A DNA stretch of 41,480 nucleotides, taken from a virus. The stretch is taken from IMG/VR virus record IMGVR_UViG_3300044556_000129; one strand, given 5' to 3'. Below are positions 1 through 41,480 of this stretch, piece after piece. Below the pieces are notes generated by a model. The model did no database searches, was not told where the DNA came from, and saw only the letters and a program-made list of their open reading frames with translations. Each line of letters begins with the position of its first letter. The stretch's first letter is position 1. Both the position numbers and the translations under genes were made by a program.

Positions 1-127
1 GCACTCTGTAAAATGTTGTCTTCATTGTCAAGTACCCACTTGATACGTTCTTCAAATGGGATTTTGTCAAGCCCTGCAAAGCCCGCACCTGCGATGTAGA
101 ACCATTTTAATGATTCTTCATTTGTCA
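1..127. repeat. Terminal overlap: identical to 41354-41480 (circular assembly artefact)
   Basis: Read directly: gcactctgtaaaatgttgtcttcattgtcaag...tcatttgtca occurs at both window ends. The junction lies inside the RNAP ORF. Confidence 0.95.
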
Positions 128-1418
128 AGGGGCTTGGTTCTGCAAAAAGAAGTAGTGCTTTCTGTGTGTCGTCCCCTTGAGGATTCAAGGCAGGACTCAT
201 TGGATAAATGCGTCCCCTATAATCGAGGTTCCATGGGAAATACACACGTTCGTAAACACTATACTTTTTAGCGCACCCTAACGTGGTATTTGTTCTAAGA
301 ACTTTGGATATTCTTGCTCTTTCATGCTTGTAGTACGCTGACAGGCGTTTTTTATGCGCCTCTAATTCTTTGGGCGTCGGGTCAATCAGACGGGGAATTT
401 TTGGTGTTTCGTCCGTTCTAGGAAGACCACCTAACCCACCATGATTTTCCATGATAGACACCATTGTTTCTAGTACTCGCTCATTGATAATAAATGGTGT
501 AGACTGTAAGGCATTTACACACTTGAAAACCCATGTCAAATCTAATTGCTCACATTTTTTTAAATAATGTTCCATGAACGTATTCTTTTGATTAAAATTA
601 GCACGGATGAAATGTGCAAAGGGGGCATTAGCTCCGTAATAAGCACCTTCCCACACTGTTGTCCACGGTTTAGGAGGGATGACACAAGGACTAAACTTAT
701 AACTATTCAACGCCATAATATCAATACTTTTCGCCCATGTCTGTACAAGCCAGTCATTCGCTTTGAGTAGCTTTCGATTCCCTTCTGCTTTATAGTCAAA
801 GTAGCCACTCCCTTGTATTACCGCTTCAAGGATAACAGTCATTAACTTATACAGCCCTTCTTTATCCATAGTTTGCGGCGTGAATTTCATAGTTTTATAT
901 GCTTTTCGTGCATATTGCACTTTAAATGTCATTTGCATACGGTGTTTTAGCCCATCTTCAAAAAATGCCCCATCTTGTCGTGTTGCTTGCTTTAAGTATT
1001 CGTAGCTAATAACTTCTTCCGTGAACGTAGACACAAGTTCATGTAAGTTACTGTTAAAGTCTACATATGTATCCTCCGAGTTATGCATGACAAACCCTAT
1101 CAAAGTGTTTAGAGTGGAGGTTATGCACGTCTTAATAAGTGTGTCTTCGCCCCCTTCATATAAGCTTTTAAGCTGATTTACAACACCTTGATATTTAGGC
1201 ACTACGCCACACTTTTTTTGGGGAAATAAAACGCTTTTAACGTTCATATAACAATCTGAAAAGACATGCTCCATCAGCTTACTACCTAATTTCGTTTCCC
1301 CTGCTGTGCCTTTTAAAGTCGCTTGTTCATATGTAGCACGTAGCACTTTTTCTGCAAAATCTTTTGATTCCTGCTCCAGCTTTAACTGCTCTTGCATAGT
1401 TCCTTTGATTTTTTCCAT
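1..1418 (-). CDS. T7-like single-subunit DNA-directed RNA polymerase, N-terminal part (continues at 41353 across the circular junction; about 869 aa in total)
   Basis: ATG at 1418-1416 is preceded by GGAAGG. The minus frame is in phase with ORF 40162..41319 after removing the 127-bp overlap. Hand translation of 126-300 gives VYFPWNLDYRGRIYPMSPALNPQGDD, matching T7 RNAP WFPYNMDWRGRVYAVSMFNPQGND. Confidence 0.95.
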   Translation of the reverse strand, partial: MEKIKGTMQEQLKLEQESKDFAEKVLRATYEQATLKGTAGETKLGSKLMEHVFSDCYMNVKSVLFPQKKCGVVPKYQGVVNQLKSLYEGGEDTLIKTCITSTLNTLIGFVMHNSEDTYVDFNSNLHELVSTFTEEVISYEYLKQATRQDGAFFEDGLKHRMQMTFKVQYARKAYKTMKFTPQTMDKEGLYKLMTVILEAVIQGSGYFDYKAEGNRKLLKANDWLVQTWAKSIDIMALNSYKFSPCVIPPKPWTTVWEGAYYGANAPFAHFIRANFNQKNTFMEHYLKKCEQLDLTWVFKCVNALQSTPFIINERVLETMVSIMENHGGLGGLPRTDETPKIPRLIDPTPKELEAHKKRLSAYYKHERARISKVLRTNTTLGCAKKYSVYERVYFPWNLDYRGRIYPMSPALNPQGDDTQKALLLFAEPSPLTNEESLKWFYIAGAGFAGLDKIPFEERIKWVLDNEDNILQS

Positions 1419-1456
1419 GGTATTACCTTCCTTTCTAGTAGGTGGAACAATTAACA

Positions 1457-2757: not shown

Positions 2758-2881
2758 TTTGTAGTGTTGTTTGAGATTAAAAAAAAATATTTTGTAGTGT
2801 TTTGTAGTGCCTTTCGACTTGACCAAAGTATATCAAACAACACTACATTTGTCAATATAATTTTTGTAGTTTTTTGTAGTG
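2758..2881. promoter_or_regulatory. Operator-like repeat array: TTTGTAGTG x5 direct (2758, 2791, 2801, 2863, 2873) plus one inverted TGTAGTG (2841-2847)
   Basis: Read directly in the divergent intergenic region. The copies overlap both promoters. Confidence 0.6.
2827..2855 (-). promoter_or_regulatory. Sigma70-type early promoter (leftward) for the operon leading to RNAP
   Basis: Minus strand reads TTGACA, a 17-nt spacer (AATGTAGTGTTGTTTGA), then TATACT. The spacer contains a TGTAGTG operator copy. Confidence 0.6.
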
Positions 2882-2907
2882 ACTTTTAAAATTATTTTTG
2901 CTATAAT
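2879..2907 (+). promoter_or_regulatory. Sigma70-type promoter (rightward) for the RHH gene, with an extended -10
   Basis: GTGACT, 17-nt spacer, TGcTATAAT. The -35 overlaps operator copy 2873-2881. Confidence 0.55.
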
Positions 2908-2934
2908 AGAATATATAATAAAAGAGGTGATAAA

Positions 2935-3108
2935 ATGAGCAATCAAAAAATGGAAAATTCAGTCTTTATGCAAATTCGTATTGAGAAAGACACACGTGAC
3001 AAATTTAGGAAACTTTGTAAAGAGAAAGCAATTAATAGTAGTGAATTATTACGTATGCTTATACTCAAGTGGATAAAAAATAATGAGAAAGAATCAAGAC
3101 ACAAGTAA
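2935..3108 (+). CDS. Ribbon-helix-helix (Arc/CopG-like) DNA-binding protein, 57 aa (below the ORF-track cutoff)
   Basis: Hand translation: MSNQKMENSVFMQIRIEKDTRDKFRKLCKEKAINSSELLRMLILKWIKNNEKESRHK. RBS AGAGGTGA lies 5 nt upstream. The pattern is beta-strand then two helices. Confidence 0.6.
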   Translation: MSNQKMENSVFMQIRIEKDTRDKFRKLCKEKAINSSELLRMLILKWIKNNEKESRHK

Positions 3109-3121
3109 TATAGACACAAAA

Positions 3122-3157
3122 AGGCCCCACATAAGCGTAAATGCTCATGTAGGGCCT
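3122..3157. terminator. Bidirectional intrinsic terminator between convergent genes
   Basis: AGGCCC.ACAT.AGC...GCT.ATGT.GGGCCT hairpin flanked by an A-run on the left and a T-rich run on the right. Confidence 0.6.
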
Positions 3158-3166
3158 ATTCTTTAT

Positions 3167-3490
3167 CTATCTATCATGTTTTTGATCAAAGACAACATTA
3201 TTCATATTTTCTATCATTCTTAACTGTGATATATCTTTATCAAGCAGATCTAAATATATACATATCTCTTCTAAATAGTGATTTTCTAATGATATTTTGA
3301 ATAAATTAAGTATTGTCATTATCAAAGCTACATCCAGTTTGTTGTCTTTATTATTGATTGTGTATAAAGCATAAACACAAGCAACCTCTAATAAATAAAA
3401 ATGTTGTTTCATCTTTACATATTTAAAGTAAGTCACAAAAAGAATAAATAAAGTTAATAGAAGACACGCAATAATTATTTTGTTCACCAT
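3167..3490 (-). CDS. Small membrane protein, AT-rich moron-like gene
   Basis: N-terminal TM segment (IIIACLLLTLFILFVTYF). ATG at 3490 with RBS AAGGAAG; the ORF track starts at GTG 3499. It is visibly more AT-rich than its neighbours. Confidence 0.45.
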   Translation of the reverse strand: MVNKIIIACLLLTLFILFVTYFKYVKMKQHFYLLEVACVYALYTINNKDNKLDVALIMTILNLFKISLENHYLEEICIYLDLLDKDISQLRMIENMNNVVFDQKHDR

Positions 3491-3594
3491 TTCCGACACT
3501 TCCTTTATGATATTTTATACCCCTATCATATCACAAATATCTCCGTGTGTCTTTGTGTCTTCTCATTGTGTCTATTAGATACTATACAGTGTTA

Positions 3595-3612
3595 TTGTAT
3601 TGGCTACTACAA
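3595..3612 (-). repeat. 18-nt element copy 1 (minus-strand sense TTGTAGTAGCCAATACAA)
   Basis: Matches 3962-3979 in inverted orientation (17/18) and 25721-25738. Confidence 0.8.
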
Positions 3613-3615
3613 AGG

Positions 3616-3675
3616 TACTAAGAGAGTCTAAGAGGTACTAAGCGATACTAAGAGAGTCTAAGAGGTACTAAGCGC
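3616..3675. repeat. 2 x 30-bp tandem repeat containing six CTAAG motifs at exact 10-bp spacing
   Basis: tactaagagagtctaagaggtactaagcg(a/c) occurs twice. CTAAG starts at 3618, 3628, 3638, 3648, 3658 and 3668. Confidence 0.9.
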
Positions 3676-3891
3676 ATACCAACAGATGACAGAACACATG
3701 TAAAACCACGATTGAACAAAATTTCAAAAAACAACAGATAACCTCATGCCACTCATGAACATATGAACAACTATTCATATATAAAAAGAAACAGATAGTC
3801 AACTAGTAGATTCAGTCAACTATCTAAAAATAAACATACAAATTCTACACGCTTCCGTGCGTATCATATAAAAATCATCTGCGCTCCCACC

Positions 3892-3920: not shown

Positions 3921-3961
3921 ACTTGTAGAGCTTGATAGTAAGCGATACAGTATTTTACAGG

Positions 3962-3979
3962 TTGTAATAGCCAATACAA
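3962..3979 (+). repeat. 18-nt element copy 2 (TTGTAATAGCCAATACAA) in the integrase leader
   Basis: Read directly. Confidence 0.8.
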
Positions 3980-4071
3980 TTAAGGTTGACTAGGTGCCAT
4001 GGTGTACAATAAGAGAGGAAAAGACTGAAAAGATACTATAGGTACTGTAAAAGTACGGAGCGGCCAAAACG

Positions 4072-4131
4072 AAGGCCATACGGGGGAAAACGGAATCGGA
4101 AGCCCGACACGTAAGGCCTTACAGATTTTTT
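4072..4131 (+). terminator. Terminator/attenuator-like hairpin plus U-run in the integrase leader
   Basis: AAGGCC-TACG-GGG...CCC-CGTA-GGCCTT followed by ACAGATTTTTT. Paired by hand only. Confidence 0.3.
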
Positions 4132-4196
4132 AGAATTTTTAAAGTCCGAAGCGTATCCAAGCGCTTCCAAGCGTACTCGAAAGGAGAAGACACACA

Positions 4197-5306
4197 ATGC
4201 CAAGAACACGACAAAGAAGAAATAAGGGTGAGGGTTCGATAACCAAGACACCCAATGGAAAGTACAAAGCAACCATTACGATTGGAGTTGGAATTGATGG
4301 TAAGCAAAAGAGAAAGTCTGTAACTAGAGACACCAAGCGAGAAGTAATAGACGCCATCACGGAGCTAAGACACAAATATAACATAGGTGATGTATCAAAA
4401 GTGGTGTCTAAGAGCGTCGAGGACGTTTGTGATGAATTTTTAGACATCAAGGAGCAAGCTGTGTCTTTAGCTACCTTTAAATCGTATAGGACACACATTA
4501 ATGCCTTCAAAGAAGTATTTGGGGGTATGATGATAGATAATGTAACAAAGACCATGATTGAGGATTATTATAAATCATTGATAAATAGTCCACATCATTA
4601 TAAATCATCATCCCTGCGGACGAAAAAGACAGTGTTGTCTTCCCTCTTCAACGAAGCGAAGCGTGCAGGATATATAAAGGACAACGTATGGGATACTGCG
4701 AATATACAACTAAAGCGTGTCTTACCCAAAGCGGCCACTATGGTTCTTCCGACACCTGAGCAGTTCCAAAAGCTCTTAGAGGAAGCGGAAAAGTATGCTC
4801 ATTGGTATTATGTACTCCTCTATCTGGCTTCTGTTACTGGAATGAGACGAGGAGAGCTATTAGGTCTTAAATGGGAATGTGTGGATAAAGACACCAAGAC
4901 TATCACCATCAATAATCAATTAAATATAGAAGGTGTCGACAGTCCGTTAAAGACACCTGCATCCTATAGGACAATTTATGTAACCCCAAAGGCATTTGAG
5001 GCTTTAGACACCCTACCTAATAAAAGTCCCTATGTCTTTTCAAGGGACAATGGGATGTTTCGGCCTGTATCGGTGTCATGGCTACAGGAGATTAATGCTG
5101 TTGTCTTTAAGGCCGCTCATATGCCAAAAGGATTTACATTTCATGACATAAGACACTATCATGCCACCCAGCTTTTAAAACATGGTATAAATCCAAAGGT
5201 GGTGAGCAGGAGATTAGGACACACATCTGTGGTTACGACGCTCAATCTGTACTTTAATTATCTTCCCAGTATGGACGAGGAAGCAAGCACAATCTTAGAT
5301 GAATGA
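4197..5306 (+). CDS. int: Tyrosine recombinase / phage integrase
   Basis: 369 aa with catalytic signature R (TGMRRGELLGLKW), HxxR (HDIRHYHATQL) and H...Y (LGHTSVVTTLNLYFNY). RBS AAAGGAGAAG. Confidence 0.93.
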   Translation: MPRTRQRRNKGEGSITKTPNGKYKATITIGVGIDGKQKRKSVTRDTKREVIDAITELRHKYNIGDVSKVVSKSVEDVCDEFLDIKEQAVSLATFKSYRTHINAFKEVFGGMMIDNVTKTMIEDYYKSLINSPHHYKSSSLRTKKTVLSSLFNEAKRAGYIKDNVWDTANIQLKRVLPKAATMVLPTPEQFQKLLEEAEKYAHWYYVLLYLASVTGMRRGELLGLKWECVDKDTKTITINNQLNIEGVDSPLKTPASYRTIYVTPKAFEALDTLPNKSPYVFSRDNGMFRPVSVSWLQEINAVVFKAAHMPKGFTFHDIRHYHATQLLKHGINPKVVSRRLGHTSVVTTLNLYFNYLPSMDEEASTILDE

Positions 5307-7946: not shown

Positions 7947-8399
7947 TCATCCTCTCTCCATACTACATACTTTTAAATCTTTGTGTGTCTTCCCGAATAT
8001 AATAATAGCACTAGGGAAAGGCGCACTATTCTTACTGTTTCCAAACTTCAAACGCCCTTTGATGAAGCGAATTTCATCCGCTTTCATTGCATAGTCATGC
8101 CACCATTTTGTGTCTGTGCGTGAAGGTACAAGACAGACAACTGTTGTCTTTGCTTCCATAGCTTTCTTCATCCATGCCCCTATTTTTTTTCCGTATGGTG
8201 GGTTCATCCAACAGACACCCTGCCAATCATGGGATAAACCATCGTCAAGGGGTGAAAAGAACTTAGAGCATTTCGCATTTTCAGGTGTGGCACATACATC
8301 TATATCAAAATGAAACTCATCATTCAATCGATTAAATAAATCCTGTGGTGTCTCCCATACTTCACTCTCACTACTATACAAAACACTATTAATAGTCAT
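7947..8399 (-). CDS. Phage Dam-type DNA N6-adenine methyltransferase
   Basis: EVWETPQDLFNRLNDEFHFDIDVCATPENAKC...CWMNPPYG (NPPY catalytic motif). Confidence 0.88.
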   Translation of the reverse strand: MTINSVLYSSESEVWETPQDLFNRLNDEFHFDIDVCATPENAKCSKFFSPLDDGLSHDWQGVCWMNPPYGKKIGAWMKKAMEAKTTVVCLVPSRTDTKWWHDYAMKADEIRFIKGRLKFGNSKNSAPFPSAIIIFGKTHKDLKVCSMERG

Positions 8400-9240: not shown

Positions 9241-9834
9241 TTACAGCTCCTCGTACCATTCATTCATATCAACATTTGTGTCCCCGATATATTCCTTATC
9301 ACTCCACTGCCAACCTGCTACATGCTTATCAGGATACGTCTGAGCAAAACCATTGTATCCACGGTAATCTGCAATCCAATAGGGGACGTAATCAGCAAGC
9401 AAGTGAGGCCGAATAGAGTTTGTCATGTAATCTGTACATTTCAGCGTGGAAGTGTAAATACCGGCACTGTAGCCTGCTTCATTACAAGTGACAATAAAAG
9501 CGGAGCAGACAGCCGTTGTGTCTACGCCATCTTCAAAACATTCATCCGCTTCACAGTCAAACCAAATTCCCATAGGGGGTACATCAGCACCGAGCAAGTC
9601 CAAAACTGTCTGTGCTTCTTCCTTTGCTCTTTCTGGTGTCTTAGCGTGGGAGAAGCAGTAGACACCCCAAGGGATACCCCGTGTCTTACATTCCTCTACG
9701 TGGCGGATCCATGTGTCTTCTTCTGTACAACCTTCCGAGATTTTAACAATGACACCTTGTACGCCAGCGGCTTCCACGGCGTCATAATCAATATCTTTCT
9801 GATAATAGGAAACATCAATTACTTTACTAGTCAT
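9241..9834 (-). CDS. GH25 muramidase endolysin
   Basis: The N-terminus KVIDVSYYQKDIDYDAVEAAGVQGVIVKISEG is the GH25 (Glyco_hydro_25) signature. Confidence 0.88.
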   Translation of the reverse strand: MTSKVIDVSYYQKDIDYDAVEAAGVQGVIVKISEGCTEEDTWIRHVEECKTRGIPWGVYCFSHAKTPERAKEEAQTVLDLLGADVPPMGIWFDCEADECFEDGVDTTAVCSAFIVTCNEAGYSAGIYTSTLKCTDYMTNSIRPHLLADYVPYWIADYRGYNGFAQTYPDKHVAGWQWSDKEYIGDTNVDMNEWYEEL

Positions 9835-24023: not shown

Positions 24024-24857
24024 CTAAGCAGGATTGCTAATAACACCCATAAAGGTGGATTCCGGACGCAAACCACCAATACCAATAGCGTATTTAGCGA
24101 TTAACTGGTCTGCCTGATATTCAGCACGACGAGCTGTTTCAAAGCTGATGTCTTTCAAGGACAAGACACCAACAGAAGATTTGTGACAAATCAAAAGTGG
24201 GGACTTGCTGGCATATGCCGACGGGAAGGCATGACCATCCCCTTGGATAGTATTAGTCGGGTCATCACCACCCTGTGTCAGATGAGGACACTCAATAATT
24301 TGGAAACCATCCATGCTGATGATATTGGAATTAGTCAGCGTAGCGGCGGCGCCATAATTGCTGTTCAAGAAATCAAGGTTCGTTGCTAGTGCGGCGTGGA
24401 TTTCAGGAGTGACAAAGCAATAACGATCACCCTGCGGTACATAATTCTGCGCCATTTTCGCCTTTACTTCAAGCAGAATATCACGGACAGCAATACCTGT
24501 TTCTTTGTTAATTCCAAGTGTGGAACCAGTTGCGAGTTTCTTTTCAACGACTCCGCCTTTACCAAGACCAGCAACGTTTTCCGTAGTGTTCAGGGCTTCC
24601 TTAGCAACCTCTGCGAGAATAGAAGCATCCATTGAGATTGCCAGTGCTTCGCCGAGCTGTGTAGCATAAGGAGAACGGAAATCATAATGTGCGATAAATT
24701 CGTCAAGGTCAAATACCAAGCAGTCAGTCGTCAACAGACCATCAATAACAATGGTACGTTCACCCTGCTGAATGTTTTCGCGAAGGTCGTCAAGACTCTT
24801 ACCACTTTTAAGGTAATGTGCTTTAGTGCGACCAAATACAGGGAACTGAGCGGATTT
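24024..24857 (-). CDS. Major capsid protein (T7 gp10-like), exon 2
   Basis: The frame is open from 24860 (an in-frame TAA lies just upstream). Hand translation KSAQFPVFGRTKAHYLKSGKSLDDLRENIQQGERTIVIDGLLTTDCLVFD aligns with T7 gp10 KSAQFPVLGRTQAAYLAPGENLDDKRKDIKHTEKVITIDGLLTADVLIYD. There is no ATG or RBS at its 5' end. Confidence 0.9.
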   Translation of the reverse strand, partial: KSAQFPVFGRTKAHYLKSGKSLDDLRENIQQGERTIVIDGLLTTDCLVFDLDEFIAHYDFRSPYATQLGEALAISMDASILAEVAKEALNTTENVAGLGKGGVVEKKLATGSTLGINKETGIAVRDILLEVKAKMAQNYVPQGDRYCFVTPEIHAALATNLDFLNSNYGAAATLTNSNIISMDGFQIIECPHLTQGGDDPTNTIQGDGHAFPSAYASKSPLLICHKSSVGVLSLKDISFETARRAEYQADQLIAKYAIGIGGLRPESTFMGVISNPA

Positions 24858-25473
24858 CAGTTATCTTTACACAAGGACGCTACCCCTTGTGTGTGCATTT
24901 GCACCTCATAGTCACCTATGAGCTGAGACTATATCTTCAAGAATACTACTGGTACTTTTTGATATATGCAATCATATTCTCTATAGTGTCTATATTTTCT
25001 TCCATCAGACCAAGAGCTGTGTTGCATTTCGTACAAAGTAGACCTCTAAGTTTTCCAGTCTTATGGTCATGATCTCCTGTTAGCCGAGTGTATCTCGTAC
25101 TTCTAAGGGACTTTCCACATATGGCACATCTGCCATGCTGTTCTTTAAAGGCTCTATCATATGCTTCTTGTGTCCATCCTGTGTCTCGTACCGTTGATAA
25201 GCGGCTGAGACATACCTTACATTCAGAACGGTATTTGCCACTATCTTTTCTGAAATAAAATTCTGATAGTGGTTTTTCTTTACCACACAAGCGACATATC
25301 TTTGTATTCTCACTCCCCATTTCGGACGGCTTCGTCCTACTCCCTTTCGGGATAGTCGTTGAACGTTCCTTACTTGTCAGCAAGGCTTCGTTGCTAGTTG
25401 TCTCTGTCTGTTCGCGAGATATTCCAGCAGTTAAAGGAGTGTTTAAAGAGAGGCAAGTCCGCATTTACATTTC
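24858..25473 (-). mobile_element. Group I-like intron (616 nt) with an embedded homing-endonuclease gene, interrupting the capsid gene
   Basis: The exon junction is fixed by the T7 alignment (..SSG|KSAQFPV..). The 5' exon ends in U and the intron ends in G. The 3' end carries three consecutive perfect hairpins (24905-24922 with a GUGA loop, 24893-24904, 24869-24892), and the 5' part has a CCC-GAAA-GGG hairpin. Confidence 0.7.
24946..25320 (-). CDS. Endonuclease VII-family HNH (homing) endonuclease
   Basis: GRCAICGKSLRSTRYTRLTGDHDHKTGKLRGLLCTKCNTALG aligns with T4 endo VII GKCLICQREL...HLDHDHEL...GKVRGLLCNLCNAAEG. The likely start is ATG 25320. The ORF-track start at 25464 would read through the structured 5' intron RNA. 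Confidence 0.8.
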   Translation of the reverse strand: MGSENTKICRLCGKEKPLSEFYFRKDSGKYRSECKVCLSRLSTVRDTGWTQEAYDRAFKEQHGRCAICGKSLRSTRYTRLTGDHDHKTGKLRGLLCTKCNTALGLMEENIDTIENMIAYIKKYQ

Positions 25474-25653
25474 ACCACTCTGAATTGTACGTTTGATAAA
25501 TTTACCATTCGTTACGGAAGCACGTGCAAATGCCGTGAGAGTTTCACCACTAAATACTTTAAGGGCAAGAGCAAGTTTGTCGGCATCTGTGTTTGCCTTT
25601 GTACCAATCGCCATAGGAGTTGCAATTTTAATATCTGCCATAATTAATATCAT
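25474..25653 (-). CDS. Major capsid protein (T7 gp10-like), exon 1
   Basis: DKLALALKVFSGETLTAFARASVTNGKFIKRTIQSG aligns with T7 gp10 DKLALFLKVFGGEVLTAFARTSVTTSRHMVRSISSG. The ORF then runs 2 codons into the intron and stops. Confidence 0.9.
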
Positions 25654-33248: not shown

Positions 33249-35033
33249 CTACTTCTTCAAATGATGATAGAAACGCTTACCTGCTTCCTTCTGTCTTGCT
33301 TCGGAGAAGTTACTAATGCGTTTCAGATACCCAATAACACGAGTACCATAATCTACATCAGTGCTACCACATTTCACACAATGGTTTTCTGTGTCTGTGT
33401 TGATGTAGCCGCAATTATTGCAAATCGTACACAAGACATTTGTTGTCCAATACTGCACACCATATTCAGAGCAAAGTTTATACAAATGCATAAACTGTTC
33501 CCAACTGAGTATCTGTTCAAGATTAAGGTGTAAAGCTGAACCACCATCAAGGTACTGAACAATATCCTTTGAATACAGTTTGAGCTTATCAAGCACGTTC
33601 ACCTTCGTGTCTTCTACAGGGTAGAAATAACTGTTGTAACAATCACGAGGTACATAAAGACCTGCTTCCTTGTCCCATTTAGCATTTTTAACACCGAGAT
33701 TTTCGGCAGGGACAAACTCAGTATTAAATCGGACGCCGTACTCAGACAAAGCGGCCTTATTAGACATCGTAAGGAAAGACAACAAGGACTGTAAATACTT
33801 CGGATATTCCTTATCTTTCACTTCACCTTTCTTGTCTCTCAAGTACTCAAAGTATTCCAAGACACCATTCACACCAATGGTCAAGAACTGCTTATCAATG
33901 TCCATAAACCCCTGTGTGTAAGCAGGGAGTAAACCTGCATCAATGTAACCTTTCAGCACTTCTCGATGCGCCAGCAGATACTTATGTACTCTATCCACTA
34001 CTTCATCCAGCTTGACATCACACTGACCAATACGATTAATGTTCAAGCTAATAACACGTGCGGAACCCGTGACAACACCACCTGCACCCAAGGTGTAACT
34101 GAAGGTGTTATCAGCTAATTCATTGCGTAAACGACAACAAGAAGCAAGACTATCTACTCTGTCAGACATATAGACAAAGAAAGACAAGCCTTTCTCCTGT
34201 TCTTCTGCCAGCCCCTGCACAAACTTAGTGTCTTTAAAACCACCTGCACCATCCGTAAGCAATGCGGCTGTTACAACAGGGAACGTCAGTAATTCTTTTT
34301 CACGCTCCTTTCTAAACCAACTCAAGAAGAATTTCTGCAAGTGATAGGTGCTTTCAATGTCTACCTGAGTACCATCAGGATAGAAAAAGCCCCCGAACAT
34401 CTCTTTTAAGTAGTCGTGGTCAAATACGCTGATGTTCCAAAATACAGACTGGTCGCCACGCGCGCTCGCTGGCTGATTCAGTGCATAGACAACACCCTGA
34501 AATTCCTGCTCTACTTCTTTATGGTGCGCCACAAGATATTCTTTACCCCACTGCTTACGAGCAAAGTAATCAAACATGTGAAGGAACTCAACAGTAGCGA
34601 TTGCACCACTGAAATTACTTGCAATCTGATAAACAAGATTGACAAAGGAACCGCAAAAACTCTGCAAGTTCTTCGGTGCTTTAGACACACCGCCTAAACA
34701 CTTCGTACCTTCCAACAAGAATGGGTACAAAGTAATACTGGCACAATAAGGCTTTAAAGATGTTTCATCGTGCGTATAGATATAATGATTTGCAAGGTCA
34801 TCTTCATAAGCCTTTGCCATATCTTCCCCGAACATCTGCGTCAACTTATCTTTAACTAACTTACGGTTAATCTGAATGGTGTCAGGCTTGAATAATTCAG
34901 CTTCCAACCCTGCGATTGTCTTCTGCGTAACATTGCTATTCGCATCTACTTTAGAAGCCGTTGCGGCATTAGAAGACACCATATAATCATGAATGTATTT
35001 AATCTTTTCTTTTAAATCAACGTTAGGTAACAT
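33249..35033 (-). CDS. nrdD: Anaerobic (class III) ribonucleoside-triphosphate reductase
   Basis: The C-terminus has a Zn ribbon (CTICNNCGY...CVKCGS) followed by the glycyl-radical motif GTRVIGYLKR. It is 594 aa and adjacent to the activase gene. Confidence 0.9.
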   Translation of the reverse strand: MLPNVDLKEKIKYIHDYMVSSNAATASKVDANSNVTQKTIAGLEAELFKPDTIQINRKLVKDKLTQMFGEDMAKAYEDDLANHYIYTHDETSLKPYCASITLYPFLLEGTKCLGGVSKAPKNLQSFCGSFVNLVYQIASNFSGAIATVEFLHMFDYFARKQWGKEYLVAHHKEVEQEFQGVVYALNQPASARGDQSVFWNISVFDHDYLKEMFGGFFYPDGTQVDIESTYHLQKFFLSWFRKEREKELLTFPVVTAALLTDGAGGFKDTKFVQGLAEEQEKGLSFFVYMSDRVDSLASCCRLRNELADNTFSYTLGAGGVVTGSARVISLNINRIGQCDVKLDEVVDRVHKYLLAHREVLKGYIDAGLLPAYTQGFMDIDKQFLTIGVNGVLEYFEYLRDKKGEVKDKEYPKYLQSLLSFLTMSNKAALSEYGVRFNTEFVPAENLGVKNAKWDKEAGLYVPRDCYNSYFYPVEDTKVNVLDKLKLYSKDIVQYLDGGSALHLNLEQILSWEQFMHLYKLCSEYGVQYWTTNVLCTICNNCGYINTDTENHCVKCGSTDVDYGTRVIGYLKRISNFSEARQKEAGKRFYHHLKK

Positions 35034-40161: not shown

Positions 40162-41480
40162 TTATGCAAAGCAATACTTACTATTTACTACATCATCAAG
40201 ATTTAAGTTCCCTTTCGATGGTATTTTAGGTATTTCTTTTCCTTCGGGGAGCAAGTACTCAACATCCTTTAACCATTCCTCTAAGTAATTGTGGTCTTTG
40301 TACATATTGACTAATTCAGTACGAATAGACTTAAATAAGTCCCCTGCATGTTCTATATCTGTACCAAAACTATCATGAATCATGAAGAAGTTGATATTTC
40401 CTTTTTCAGCTTGATTCATGATTACTCTTTGCATGTGACACGCATCCATACTGTGGATAAAGTTAGGGGCGATTGCTTGGGCTTGTCCCCTTGTGTCTAT
40501 GTTGGTGCTATCTTGGGGAACATAGATACGAATGAAACCACCATTAAAGCGCATACGGCATGTTTCCATGTTAGGTACAAATTTATTCTGTTGGATTGGT
40601 AAGCCATTGGGGCTTGTCCATGCTACGACTTCTCCGTTCTTTCCAATAAGAGAAGCGACCTTTTTCAGCCATTCCATGCCCTCTACGGCCTTTACAACCG
40701 TGGTGGTTACAGCGTCCCAAATCAATTTTGCCATGTAGTTTGCGGCCTGTGAGCGACTCAAGAAGATAGGGCTGTCTTTATGTTCATCAATCCATGGCTT
40801 GATAATGTCGGACTTGAGGTTTTCGGAGAAACCATACGTCCTTGAACCATACGCAAGAGTCATGACAGAACGCTTGCAAACTTTACGCTTGATACCGTCC
40901 GAACCGAATTTCTCGCGGCCATACATCAGCCATTCAGACGCAAGTTCTTTTGTGCCATATGCAATGCACTTTTTGCCCTTGTTGTCAAGTACATATTCGC
41001 CTGTTTTCTTATCTTTTTTGAAGTCATCTGCTGTCCCCTCTAATGCGTCTTTATGTAAGACAACGTTTACTTTATCAGCCACGACTTGATAAATATCATG
41101 AACTTTTTCATCGGGTATAAGATTTACATTTTTTCCACCCACTTCATCAGCAAGAAGCATGGAGAAGTGTTGCAAACCTGAACACGTTCCATCAAAGCTA
41201 ATTGGAAGTCCCGACTTGTAGCCAATTGCGGAACCGTTGTGTTCTGCTTGATAGACACGGAGTCTTTCAAATTCAAAACAGAAAGACAAGAAGCACATAG
41301 GACTTTCGTCACCTGCCACTTCGTTCCACCACGTGTACGTAAGAGGGGAAGCGGCACTCTGTAAAATGTTGTCTTCATTGTCAAGTACCCACTTGATACG
41401 TTCTTCAAATGGGATTTTGTCAAGCCCTGCAAAGCCCGCACCTGCGATGTAGAACCATTTTAATGATTCTTCATTTGTCA
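40162..41480 (-). CDS. T7-like single-subunit RNA polymerase, C-terminal part (ORF open to the window edge; continues into 1-1418)
   Basis: DESPMCFLSFCFEF...PISFDGTCSGLQHFSMLLADEVGGKNVNL...RSVMTLAYGS...IAPNFIHSMDACHM...FFMIHDSFGT...KGNLNLDDVVNSKYCFA aligns with T7 RNAP DSPFCFLAFCFEY...[29 protein letters not shown]...IAPNFVHSQDGSHL...FALIHDSFGT...KGNLNLRDILESDFAFA. Confidence 0.97.
   Translation of the reverse strand, partial: TNEESLKWFYIAGAGFAGLDKIPFEERIKWVLDNEDNILQSAASPLTYTWWNEVAGDESPMCFLSFCFEFERLRVYQAEHNGSAIGYKSGLPISFDGTCSGLQHFSMLLADEVGGKNVNLIPDEKVHDIYQVVADKVNVVLHKDALEGTADDFKKDKKTGEYVLDNKGKKCIAYGTKELASEWLMYGREKFGSDGIKRKVCKRSVMTLAYGSRTYGFSENLKSDIIKPWIDEHKDSPIFLSRSQAANYMAKLIWDAVTTTVVKAVEGMEWLKKVASLIGKNGEVVAWTSPNGLPIQQNKFVPNMETCRMRFNGGFIRIYVPQDSTNIDTRGQAQAIAPNFIHSMDACHMQRVIMNQAEKGNINFFMIHDSFGTDIEHAGDLFKSIRTELVNMYKDHNYLEEWLKDVEYLLPEGKEIPKIPSKGNLNLDDVVNSKYCFA
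41354..41480. repeat. Second copy of the 127-bp terminal overlap
   Basis: Exact repeat of 1-127. Confidence 0.95.

Follow-up and report, generated by a model that had tools for sequence, protein, structure and literature searches.

Group I introns of T7-like phages have been described in the DNA polymerase gene, as in the Yersinia phages Berlin and YpP-G (PMC6083498), in the case of K1F gp5.3 (PMC4925675), in Xanthomonas phage phiL7 (according to a citing passage in PMC10580990) and in the cyanophage Pf-WMP3, which carries a group IA2 intron with I-PfoP3I (PMC3428280). With regard to capsid genes, splicing of an intron in mycobacteriophage LittleE (Cluster J) was shown by reverse transcription PCR (RT-PCR) and N-terminal protein sequencing (PMC3706429), and a passage of the same publication cites a capsid intron in the lactococcal phage Tuc2009. 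Among the homing endonucleases, F-CphI of cyanophage S-PM2 is the founding member of the DHHRN family (PMC6083498). The present report deals with a T7 gp10-type major capsid gene in the IMG/VR virus record IMGVR_UViG_3300044556_000129 (41,480 nucleotides (nt); this whole stretch is referred to as the window), which, as read from the sequence, consists of two pieces separated by 616 nt. It is almost certain that this insertion is a group I intron, and very probable that it is a mobile self-splicing one which is removed from the capsid message in vivo. Its location in a T7-like capsid gene appears to be previously undescribed; the components and their logic are all familiar. An earlier sequence-only reading of the window had left open whether there was a precedent for this location: literature searches turned up no publication on introns in T7-like capsid genes (subscription journals were not covered, so that this is weak evidence of absence), capsid-gene introns are established elsewhere (PMC3706429) and they have gone unrecognised in Ralstonia phages, as detailed below.

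The split of the gene had been noticed from the sequence, with one piece ending in ...FIKRTIQSG at 25474 and the other resuming with KSAQFPVFGRT at 24857, and both were confirmed at these positions. The spliced product would have 333 amino acids (aa), matches Pfam Gp10A-like (E 4.8e-47) and aligns without gaps across the junction to solved capsids of the T7 family (7y23, E 1.5e-81; T7 gp10A 2xvr, E 5.6e-74) as well as to about 1,400 phage genomes in tblastn, the best identity over most of the length being ~50%. The predicted junction of the ligated exons reads ...CAGAGUGGU followed by AAAUCCGCU.... Exon 2 is preceded by an in-frame TAA two codons upstream and its first possible start is a TTG at 24734; by sequence reading, neither a usable start codon before this TTG nor a ribosome-binding site was found, in agreement with the previous claim that the second piece is not independently translatable. 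The start of exon 1 had been placed at 25653; the ATG at 25641 is more likely, since the Shine-Dalgarno sequence AAGGTGG directly abuts the 25653 ATG and relatives match from MADIK onwards. In GenBank phages, megablast with the capsid region returned no close match, only short matches to intron cores, and the nearest capsid proteins are ~50% identical.

Related capsid loci were recovered from IMG/VR with the spliced protein as query (39 loci), the exons and the intron were BLASTed against them and the junctions were aligned. Eleven alleles with 96-99% protein identity lack the intron, and in these exon-1 base 168 is directly followed by exon-2 base 1 (GGT and then AAATC). As the 11 alleles join exactly at the predicted site, the splice sites are fixed to the nucleotide; the boundaries proposed earlier, with an intron that begins GAAAUG after exon GGU and ends AACUG, hold without the margin of a few nucleotides that had been attached to them, and the comparison with intron-less alleles that had then been recommended defines the empty site. 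The full 616-nt intron is present at the identical site in seven contigs (94.6-98.4% identity), which makes eight full copies counting the window. A 292-nt version was found in three further contigs (L021, L023 and L030; locus positions 3169-3460) and consists of intron nt 1-185 joined to 510-616, a 324-nt in-frame deletion by which the endonuclease is lost, leaving an open reading frame (ORF) of 16 codons, and P8 and the whole ribozyme are kept. The end points of the deletion are identical in the three contigs and the single-nucleotide polymorphisms (SNPs) of their flanking exons differ. More distant capsid alleles (66-88% identity) are all uninterrupted, including one in the chromosome of Megasphaera hexanoica. 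Altogether, the occurrence of full, ORF-less and empty alleles matches the cycle of invasion, degeneration and loss that is known for homing introns.

The covariance-model search that had been suggested as a check recovered a full-length group I core: the Rfam model RF00028 matched 25491..24905 on the minus strand over its entire length (positions 1-253) with 64.4 bits (curated gathering threshold, 50; E 3.1e-14 for a search of the whole window), and the group I intron was the sole RNA family found in the window by the Rfam search. Helices were assigned by reading the Rfam alignment together with the minimum-free-energy fold of the ORF-trimmed intron, which has a z of -5.1 and reproduces the assigned helices and the P10 pairing. 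Covariation was evaluated in an alignment of 11 introns, comprising three capsid-intron copies and the introns of eight other contigs. In this alignment 85.1% of the cells were paired versus 33-45% when the 3' partners were slid by 1-3 columns, changes on both sides were seen in 37 of 63 pairs, and none of 500 shuffles reached the observed covariation score. P7 (GACUA/UAGUC) is pairable in all 11 aligned sequences and, being invariant, is uninformative with respect to covariation either way; P9.1 and P9.2 align poorly among the distant members and are supported only within the capsid copies. As in group I introns in general, P7 would be the guanosine-binding site and would form a pseudoknot with P3. 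In the Michel-Westhof classification, subgroup IA is characterized by two additional helices, P7.1 and P7.2, placed between P7 and the P3 3' strand, and the presence of both at intron nt 122-150, each of them covarying, indicates that the intron belongs to this subgroup. These two helices are the hairpins CCC-GAAA-GGG and GGAC-GAAGCC-GUCC that had been noticed upstream of the endonuclease gene, and the three hairpins that had been noticed after its stop, one with a GUGA loop, are P9, P9.1 and P9.2. An intein was also considered and is ruled out by stop codons, namely the in-frame UAA at intron nt 7-9 and others before exon 2.

A P1 pairing and its guide sequence, for which no candidate had been identified by eye, were located close to the 5' end of the intron. 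Intron nt 20-27 (GCCUCUCU) pair with the last eight bases of exon 1 (AGAGUGGU) at 7 of 8 positions, including a U.G pair between the splice-site U and G20, and intron nt 12-19 (GCGGACUU) form P10 with exon 2 positions +1 to +8 (AAAUCCGC), likewise with 7 of 8 paired; the core of P10, GCGGA/UCCGC, appears in the minimum-free-energy fold. As read from these pairings, GCGGACUU followed immediately by GCCUCUCU is a textbook internal guide sequence that would align both exons. The features of the locus, of the rest of the window and of related introns in other contigs are listed in Table 1.

Table 1. Coordinates of the split capsid gene, its intron and other features (positions of the window, intron nt where so stated, and locus positions for the contigs L042 to L058)
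Feature	Position	Strand	Details
Group I intron, IA-like	24858..25473	-	616 nt; follows exon U; ends in G (omega-G 24858)
Capsid exon 1	25474..25641	-	168 nt, 56 aa, MADIK...RTIQSG; 3' end fixed by intron-less alleles
Last 8 nt of exon 1, AGAGUGGU	25481..25474	-	Exon strand of P1
Capsid exon 2	24024..24857	-	277 aa and stop codon, KSAQFPVFGRT...ISNPA
In-frame UAA	25465..25467 (intron nt 7-9)	-	Kept in all 11 capsid-intron copies (GAAAUN UAA AUG)
Internal guide sequence, GCGGACUU then GCCUCUCU	25447..25462 (intron nt 12-27)	-	Sequence reading; P10 core in minimum-free-energy fold
5' half of ribozyme core	25312..25440	-	Rfam alignment, compensatory changes, minimum-free-energy fold
P3	intron nt 34-40 / 156-162	-	Covaries
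P4	intron nt 45-50 / 77-82	-	Covaries
P5	intron nt 55-58 / 70-73	-	Covaries
P6	intron nt 83-84 / 110-111	-	
P6a	intron nt 89-92 / 103-106	-	Covaries
P7	intron nt 117-121 / 543-547	-	Invariant
P7 3' strand, UAGUC	24927..24931	-	Pairs with GACUA at 25357..25353
P7.1, UCCC-GAAA-GGGA	intron nt 122-125 / 130-133	-	Covaries
P7.2, GGAC-GAAGCC-GUCC	intron nt 137-140 / 147-150	-	Covaries
P8, enclosing the endonuclease ORF	24940..25310 (intron nt 164-170 / 528-534)	-	AGAAUAC (25310..25304) with GUAUUCU (24946..24940); covaries; retained in the 292-nt ORF-less derivatives
P9 (GUGA loop), P9.1, P9.2	24869..24922 (intron nt 552-605)	-	P9 covaries; followed by tail AAAGAUAACUG
Homing endonuclease gene (predicted)	24946..25320	-	124 aa, in P8 loop; Endo VII / DHHRN motif
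Tyrosine integrase	4197..5306	+	Pfam Phage_integrase E 2.3e-22; strand opposite to all other genes
Anaerobic ribonucleoside-triphosphate reductase NrdD	33249..35033	-	594 aa; Pfam E 8.6e-101
L042 intron	9355-9573		Major head protein (phrog_1357)
L054 intron	2954-3214		Large terminase
L057 introns (3)	3171-3382, 3564-3767, 4551-4781		SU10-type capsid protein and adaptor
L058 introns (3)	2687-2898, 3951-4166, 4951-5164		Tail sheath

The start codon of the endonuclease gene abuts the 3' strand of P3 and its UAG stop overlaps the 3' strand of P8. The product matches Pfam PF02945 Endonuclease_7 (E 1.8e-21) and phrog_2633 "endonuclease VII" (E 3.6e-30), and its nearest solved chains are Hpy99I (E 4.9e-10) and T4 endonuclease VII (E 8e-7). 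The DHHRN motif is complete (C65xxC68, D83 H84 D85 H86, R92, C96xxC99 and N100) and is preceded by an N-terminal zinc ribbon (C9xxC12, C34xxC37). In the Pfam scan at E <= 0.001 there was no match to HNH, and only Endonuclease_7 and a treble-clef zinc-finger family were returned. It was reported that the motif CX2-4C ... DHDH ... R ... CX2C-N defines the DHHRN or endonuclease VII (Endo VII)-motif family of F-CphI, and that the Endo VII motif is set apart from HNH since the central Asn is missing (PMC6083498). The gene had previously been labelled endonuclease VII/HNH; the Endo VII part of this label is borne out by the profile match and the DHHRN residues and the classical HNH part is not, so that the product is more precisely described as a predicted Endo VII-motif (DHHRN) enzyme, for which "HNH" is apt only at the level of the fold superfamily (beta-beta-alpha-metal).

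The best matches of the endonuclease in the phage database are "endonuclease VII" genes of Ralstonia T7-like phages (40.8% identity, E 2e-20). These seven phages (DU_RP_I, RsoP1EGY, vRsoP-WF2, vRsoP-WM2, vRsoP-WR2, PY04L1 and PY065YO380) carry a 515-nt insertion that is 99.6-100% identical in all seven and is not annotated as an intron; in DU_RP_I (L065, NC_047888.1) it occupies positions 2881-3395, and the annotation shows the major head protein as two pieces on either side of the endonuclease gene. A literature search combining the names of the Ralstonia phages with "intron" found no mention, and a Ralstonia phage genome paper gives three separate ORFs (capsid/scaffold, endonuclease VII and major capsid protein) and makes no mention of an intron (PMC8703784). 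Two other endonuclease genes were examined as candidate capsid introns and rejected: that of Synechococcus phage S-RIP1 is a free-standing gene between the RNA polymerase and single-stranded DNA-binding protein genes, and that of Klebsiella phage Keithsmous reflects a strand mis-annotation.

Variation among the eight full copies is unevenly distributed, with 4 of 153 variable sites in the 5' half of the ribozyme, 38 of 375 in the ORF and 6 of 88 in the 3' part; two of the latter six constitute a compensatory change in P9, from U-A to C-G at nt 553/568. The endonuclease ORF is intact in all eight, with a ratio of non-synonymous to synonymous differences (pN/pS) of 0.11. Both the ribozyme and the enzyme are under purifying selection. 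In each of the 28 pairs of copies, the synonymous divergence (pS) is smaller for the intron ORF than for exon 2 (means 0.145 vs 0.263), as between the window and L020 (0.077 vs 0.283) or between L016 and L018 (0.000 vs 0.167), and hence the intron was shared among capsid backgrounds more recently than these diverged. Homing would yield such a pattern, and recombination within exon 2 would do so too.

The sequences flanking the insertion site were compared between the 11 intron-bearing and the 11 empty alleles over 330 nt on each side. The difference in allele frequency peaks at +6 (window 24852; 0.82, Fisher p 2e-4), -13 (window 25486; 0.64) and +9 (window 24849; 0.45), and elsewhere it is <=0.36, so that the association with the presence of the intron is confined to ~13 nt around the site. 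The variants at these three positions are all synonymous. Position +6 is C or T, with C in 11 of 11 intron-bearing and in 2 of 11 empty alleles. Among the empty alleles are a AAATCCGCT type, as in L006 and L031, and a AAATCTGCA type, as in L001-L004; L006 and L031 carry intron-type bases on the 3' flank (+6 and +9).

Based on these sequence features, how the intron would be spliced out, how its enzyme would act and by which route it would home can be envisaged as follows. The capsid pre-mRNA would be transcribed with the intron inside, and ribosomes arriving from exon 1 would halt at the UAA three codons into the intron, before the ribozyme core. The RNA would fold into the P3-P9 core and the guide would grip the end of exon 1 through P1 (the U.G pair being at the cleavage site) and the beginning of exon 2 through P10. 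Free guanosine would then attack after the U at 25474, the freed 3' OH of exon 1 would attack after the terminal G at 24858, and the ligated message would be translated into the uninterrupted capsid protein. The endonuclease encoded in the P8 loop may cut or nick intron-less capsid alleles in co-infecting phages or resident prophages, whereupon recombinational repair would copy the intron together with a few flanking bases into the break.

Among the other explanations, it is scarcely credible that the insertion does not splice at all, in which case the capsid gene would be broken, as in a defective phage or a pseudogene, or the capsid would be made from two polypeptides. The GenBank annotation of the similar arrangement in Ralstonia phages as two separate capsid ORFs points in this direction; however, exon 2 of the window has no start codon or ribosome-binding site of its own and has stops just upstream, the ribozyme core is far more conserved than the synonymous sites of the adjacent ORF and its helices covary, the ribozyme of the ORF-less derivatives is preserved (97-100% identity) in apparently complete genomes of 36-43 kb, and the exons are conserved as protein (96-99% amino-acid identity at ~90% nucleotide identity). 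The viability of the cultured Ralstonia T7-like phages with a split capsid gene also counts in favor of a spliced intron. It is quite improbable, too, that the ribozyme splices and the element no longer homes, with an endonuclease that is inactive or has been recruited to another role and a presence/absence pattern that would go back to vertical descent and ordinary recombination, with precise loss from time to time. The ORF is already absent from three contigs, and L006 and L031, which are empty and yet carry flanking bases typical of intron-bearing alleles, could mean precise loss. Against this stand the maintenance of the ORF in every full copy with the low pN/pS given above and every catalytic motif residue present, the lower synonymous divergence of the intron ORF in every pair, which speaks for its movement between capsid backgrounds, and the limitation of the flanking SNP association to ~13 nt on either side.

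A further alternative concerns the size of the enzyme. A frame of 172 codons extends from 25464 to 24946: its ATG overlaps the in-frame stop (UAAAUG, 25467-25462), and it runs through the 5' half of the ribozyme into the endonuclease. If termination at the UAA (25467..25465) were followed by re-initiation on UAAAUG, the enzyme would have 172 aa and its output would be tied to translation of the unspliced capsid mRNA, in competition with folding of the ribozyme. In all 11 copies the frame is open from intron nt 10 into the endonuclease and UAAAUG is conserved, the Ralstonia intron likewise has an open frame from near its 5' end into the enzyme, and no strong Shine-Dalgarno sequence precedes the ATG at 25320. 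Nevertheless, the 48-codon extension is without sign of coding constraint, all four of its variable sites being non-synonymous in contrast to the pN/pS of the enzyme proper, the alignments to family profiles begin at residue 4 of the 124-aa form, and a 48-codon frame would be open by chance with a probability of ~0.1. The extended form is therefore unlikely to be the expressed enzyme, and 25320 was taken as the start because the 48 extra codons carry only non-synonymous differences.

Some observations weigh against the interpretation of the insertion as a mobile self-splicing intron or against details of it. The pairings of the guide are imperfect, with one U-U mismatch in P1 and one A-C mismatch in P10, and the P10 position at nt 16 differs among copies without compensation. 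The Rfam alignment draws P1 as CAAUUCA/UGAAAUG, which implies a 5' splice site 8 nt upstream; this placement was discarded since it does not restore the frame and the intron-less alleles set the junction between GGT and AAA. No P2 helix was detected in the fold or the alignment of the intron. The intron-bearing contigs that were found all belong to a single metagenome data set (3300045988), which limits the independence of the sample. The SNP association next to the site would fit equally a short co-conversion tract, empty sites resistant to cleavage, or selection for a C-G pair in P10. An insertion into the best-conserved part of the gene at nucleotide level was considered and discarded as well: the site ranks 272 among 1089 windows of 24 nt (0.886 vs a gene mean of 0.78).

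Both ends of the window share an identical stretch of 127 nt (1-127 and 41354-41480), and because of this terminal overlap the window is regarded as a circular assembly of ~41.35 kb. It encodes a T7-like gene set (RNA polymerase, primase-helicase, family A DNA polymerase, exonuclease, T7-type terminase and gp10-type capsid) and all genes, including that of the capsid, lie on the minus strand with the exception of the integrase; no tRNA genes were found in the window. Two other apparent interruptions were dismissed. The break in the RNA polymerase gene near 41320 is not an intervening sequence, as the gene spans the cut of the assembly (~40162-41480 and 1-1430, minus strand), and the methylase fragment at 7947..8399 is not a split gene, as the ORF there is small but complete and contains an NPPY motif. 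The NrdD gene lies between those of the primase-helicase and the DNA polymerase; such an auxiliary gene is uncommon in T7-like phages and agrees with an anaerobic host. Capsid genes with 87% and 88% identity occur in the Megasphaera hexanoica chromosome (L064) and in a metagenome-assembled genome labelled Pseudobutyrivibrio, respectively. The integrase together with the capsid gene in the Megasphaera hexanoica chromosome suggests a temperate phage of a strict anaerobe; thus, judging from gene content, the phage is probably temperate and its host probably a strict anaerobe, which may be Megasphaera-like.

Relatives of the ribozyme recognisable by blastn were found in large myoviruses, jumbo phages and metagenomic contigs, and none of them is in a T7-like polymerase gene. 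A 28-nt stretch over P7, P7.1 and P7.2 is present in 23 IMG/VR contigs, 10 with the capsid intron and 13 others; the latter are mainly phage contigs 36-120 kb long and include three short fragments, and 9 of the 13 have ORF-less group I introns scoring 50-92 bits. ORF-less introns of the same family were seen in or next to late genes of unrelated phages (Table 1), with the exact 28-nt core once per locus, and in L057 and L058 three introns are found within 1.6-2.5 kb. In addition, stretches of 32-115 nt of the intron core match large GenBank phages (H1-H7, H48-H87) at 73-100% identity in unannotated or intron-like regions, among them Escherichia phage nepoznato, Vibrio phages PS17B-2 and 5P1c, Pseudomonas phage 201phi2-1, Escherichia phage Av-05 and Campylobacter and Enterococcus phages; in some cases the matching region falls within a gene that bears the annotation terminase or RNA polymerase beta subunit. 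As judged from such matches, this suggests that large phages contain many unannotated introns of the ribozyme family of the window.

In practical terms, T7-type capsid genes that appear as two ORFs flanking an "endonuclease VII" should be annotated as one spliced gene, which applies to the window and to at least seven GenBank Ralstonia phages. Capsid genes serve widely as markers in phylogenetics and metagenomics and are truncated when an intron in them goes unrecognised. Since the capsid message is among the most expressed and translated ones in a T7-like infection, splicing must be fast and efficient, and the capsid intron represents a demanding test case for the folding of a ribozyme alongside translation. 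Full, ORF-less and empty alleles in one set of contigs offer a compact natural view of the homing-intron cycle, and the empty sites with and without the +6/+9 variants are ready substrates for studies on endonuclease specificity. The finding of this capsid intron leaves the current understanding intact.

With the introns of phage T4 (td, nrdB and sunY/nrdD; subgroup IA2), the intron of the window shares the IA-type core, P7.1/P7.2 and P9.1/P9.2, as well as an in-frame stop soon after the 5' splice site and a looped-out endonuclease ORF that starts near core pairings. The T4 ORFs lie in the loop of P6 or P9.1 whereas that of the window lies in P8, and the T4 enzymes differ in family (GIY-YIG in I-TevI and I-TevII) and reside in genes of nucleotide metabolism. 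The polymerase introns of T7-like phages occur in the same type of phage and follow the same design, a group I ribozyme with a beta-beta-alpha-metal endonuclease ORF, and those of Berlin and YpP-G share the endonuclease family (DHHRN / Endo VII motif) with the window intron; the gene is different, DNA polymerase in those phages and a late, very highly expressed capsid gene here. In LittleE a group I intron and an endonuclease gene are likewise found in the major capsid gene, and close relatives lack them at the same site, as observed here. LittleE, however, belongs to an unrelated lineage (a siphovirus of Actinobacteria), its endonuclease is transcribed opposite to the capsid gene whereas that of the window is on the same strand and inside P8, and its splicing is experimentally established whereas the evidence for splicing in the window is computational. 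F-CphI has the same motif (CX2C ... DHDH ... R ... CX2C-N) in the C-terminal part of a small protein, and both it and the enzyme of the window fall in the "endonuclease clade", not in the resolvase clade, with Hpy99I as the nearest solved structure; F-CphI is free-standing beside an ORF-less psbA intron ("collaborative homing"), unlike the window enzyme, which is encoded inside its intron.

The closest arrangement is that of the Ralstonia phages, whose hosts are Betaproteobacteria. Their insertion lies within the same SGKSAQFPV-coding motif, between ...SGKSA and QFPV..., 9 nt downstream of the site in the window, and its removal gives a full-length capsid protein of 314 aa. In both introns the endonuclease ORF is in the P8 position and no P2 is evident; the Ralstonia intron has a perfect 8-bp P1 (AGUCGGCU/GGCCGACU) as drawn by eye, is shorter (515 nt), lacks P7.1/P7.2 and scores 40 bits, below the Rfam group I threshold of 50. 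The scaffold of the window intron, with its P7.1/P7.2, has a 28-nt core identical to that of ORF-less introns in capsid, terminase and sheath genes of unrelated phages. It can be tentatively proposed, although this is rather doubtful, that one lineage of Endo VII-motif endonucleases has specialised on the SGKSAQFPV-coding stretch and been combined with different group I ribozyme scaffolds. If true, this would be a case in nature of endonuclease-ribozyme reassortment, a proposed route for the origin of mobile introns, and its range would comprise phages whose hosts are Negativicutes-type anaerobes as well as phages of Betaproteobacteria.

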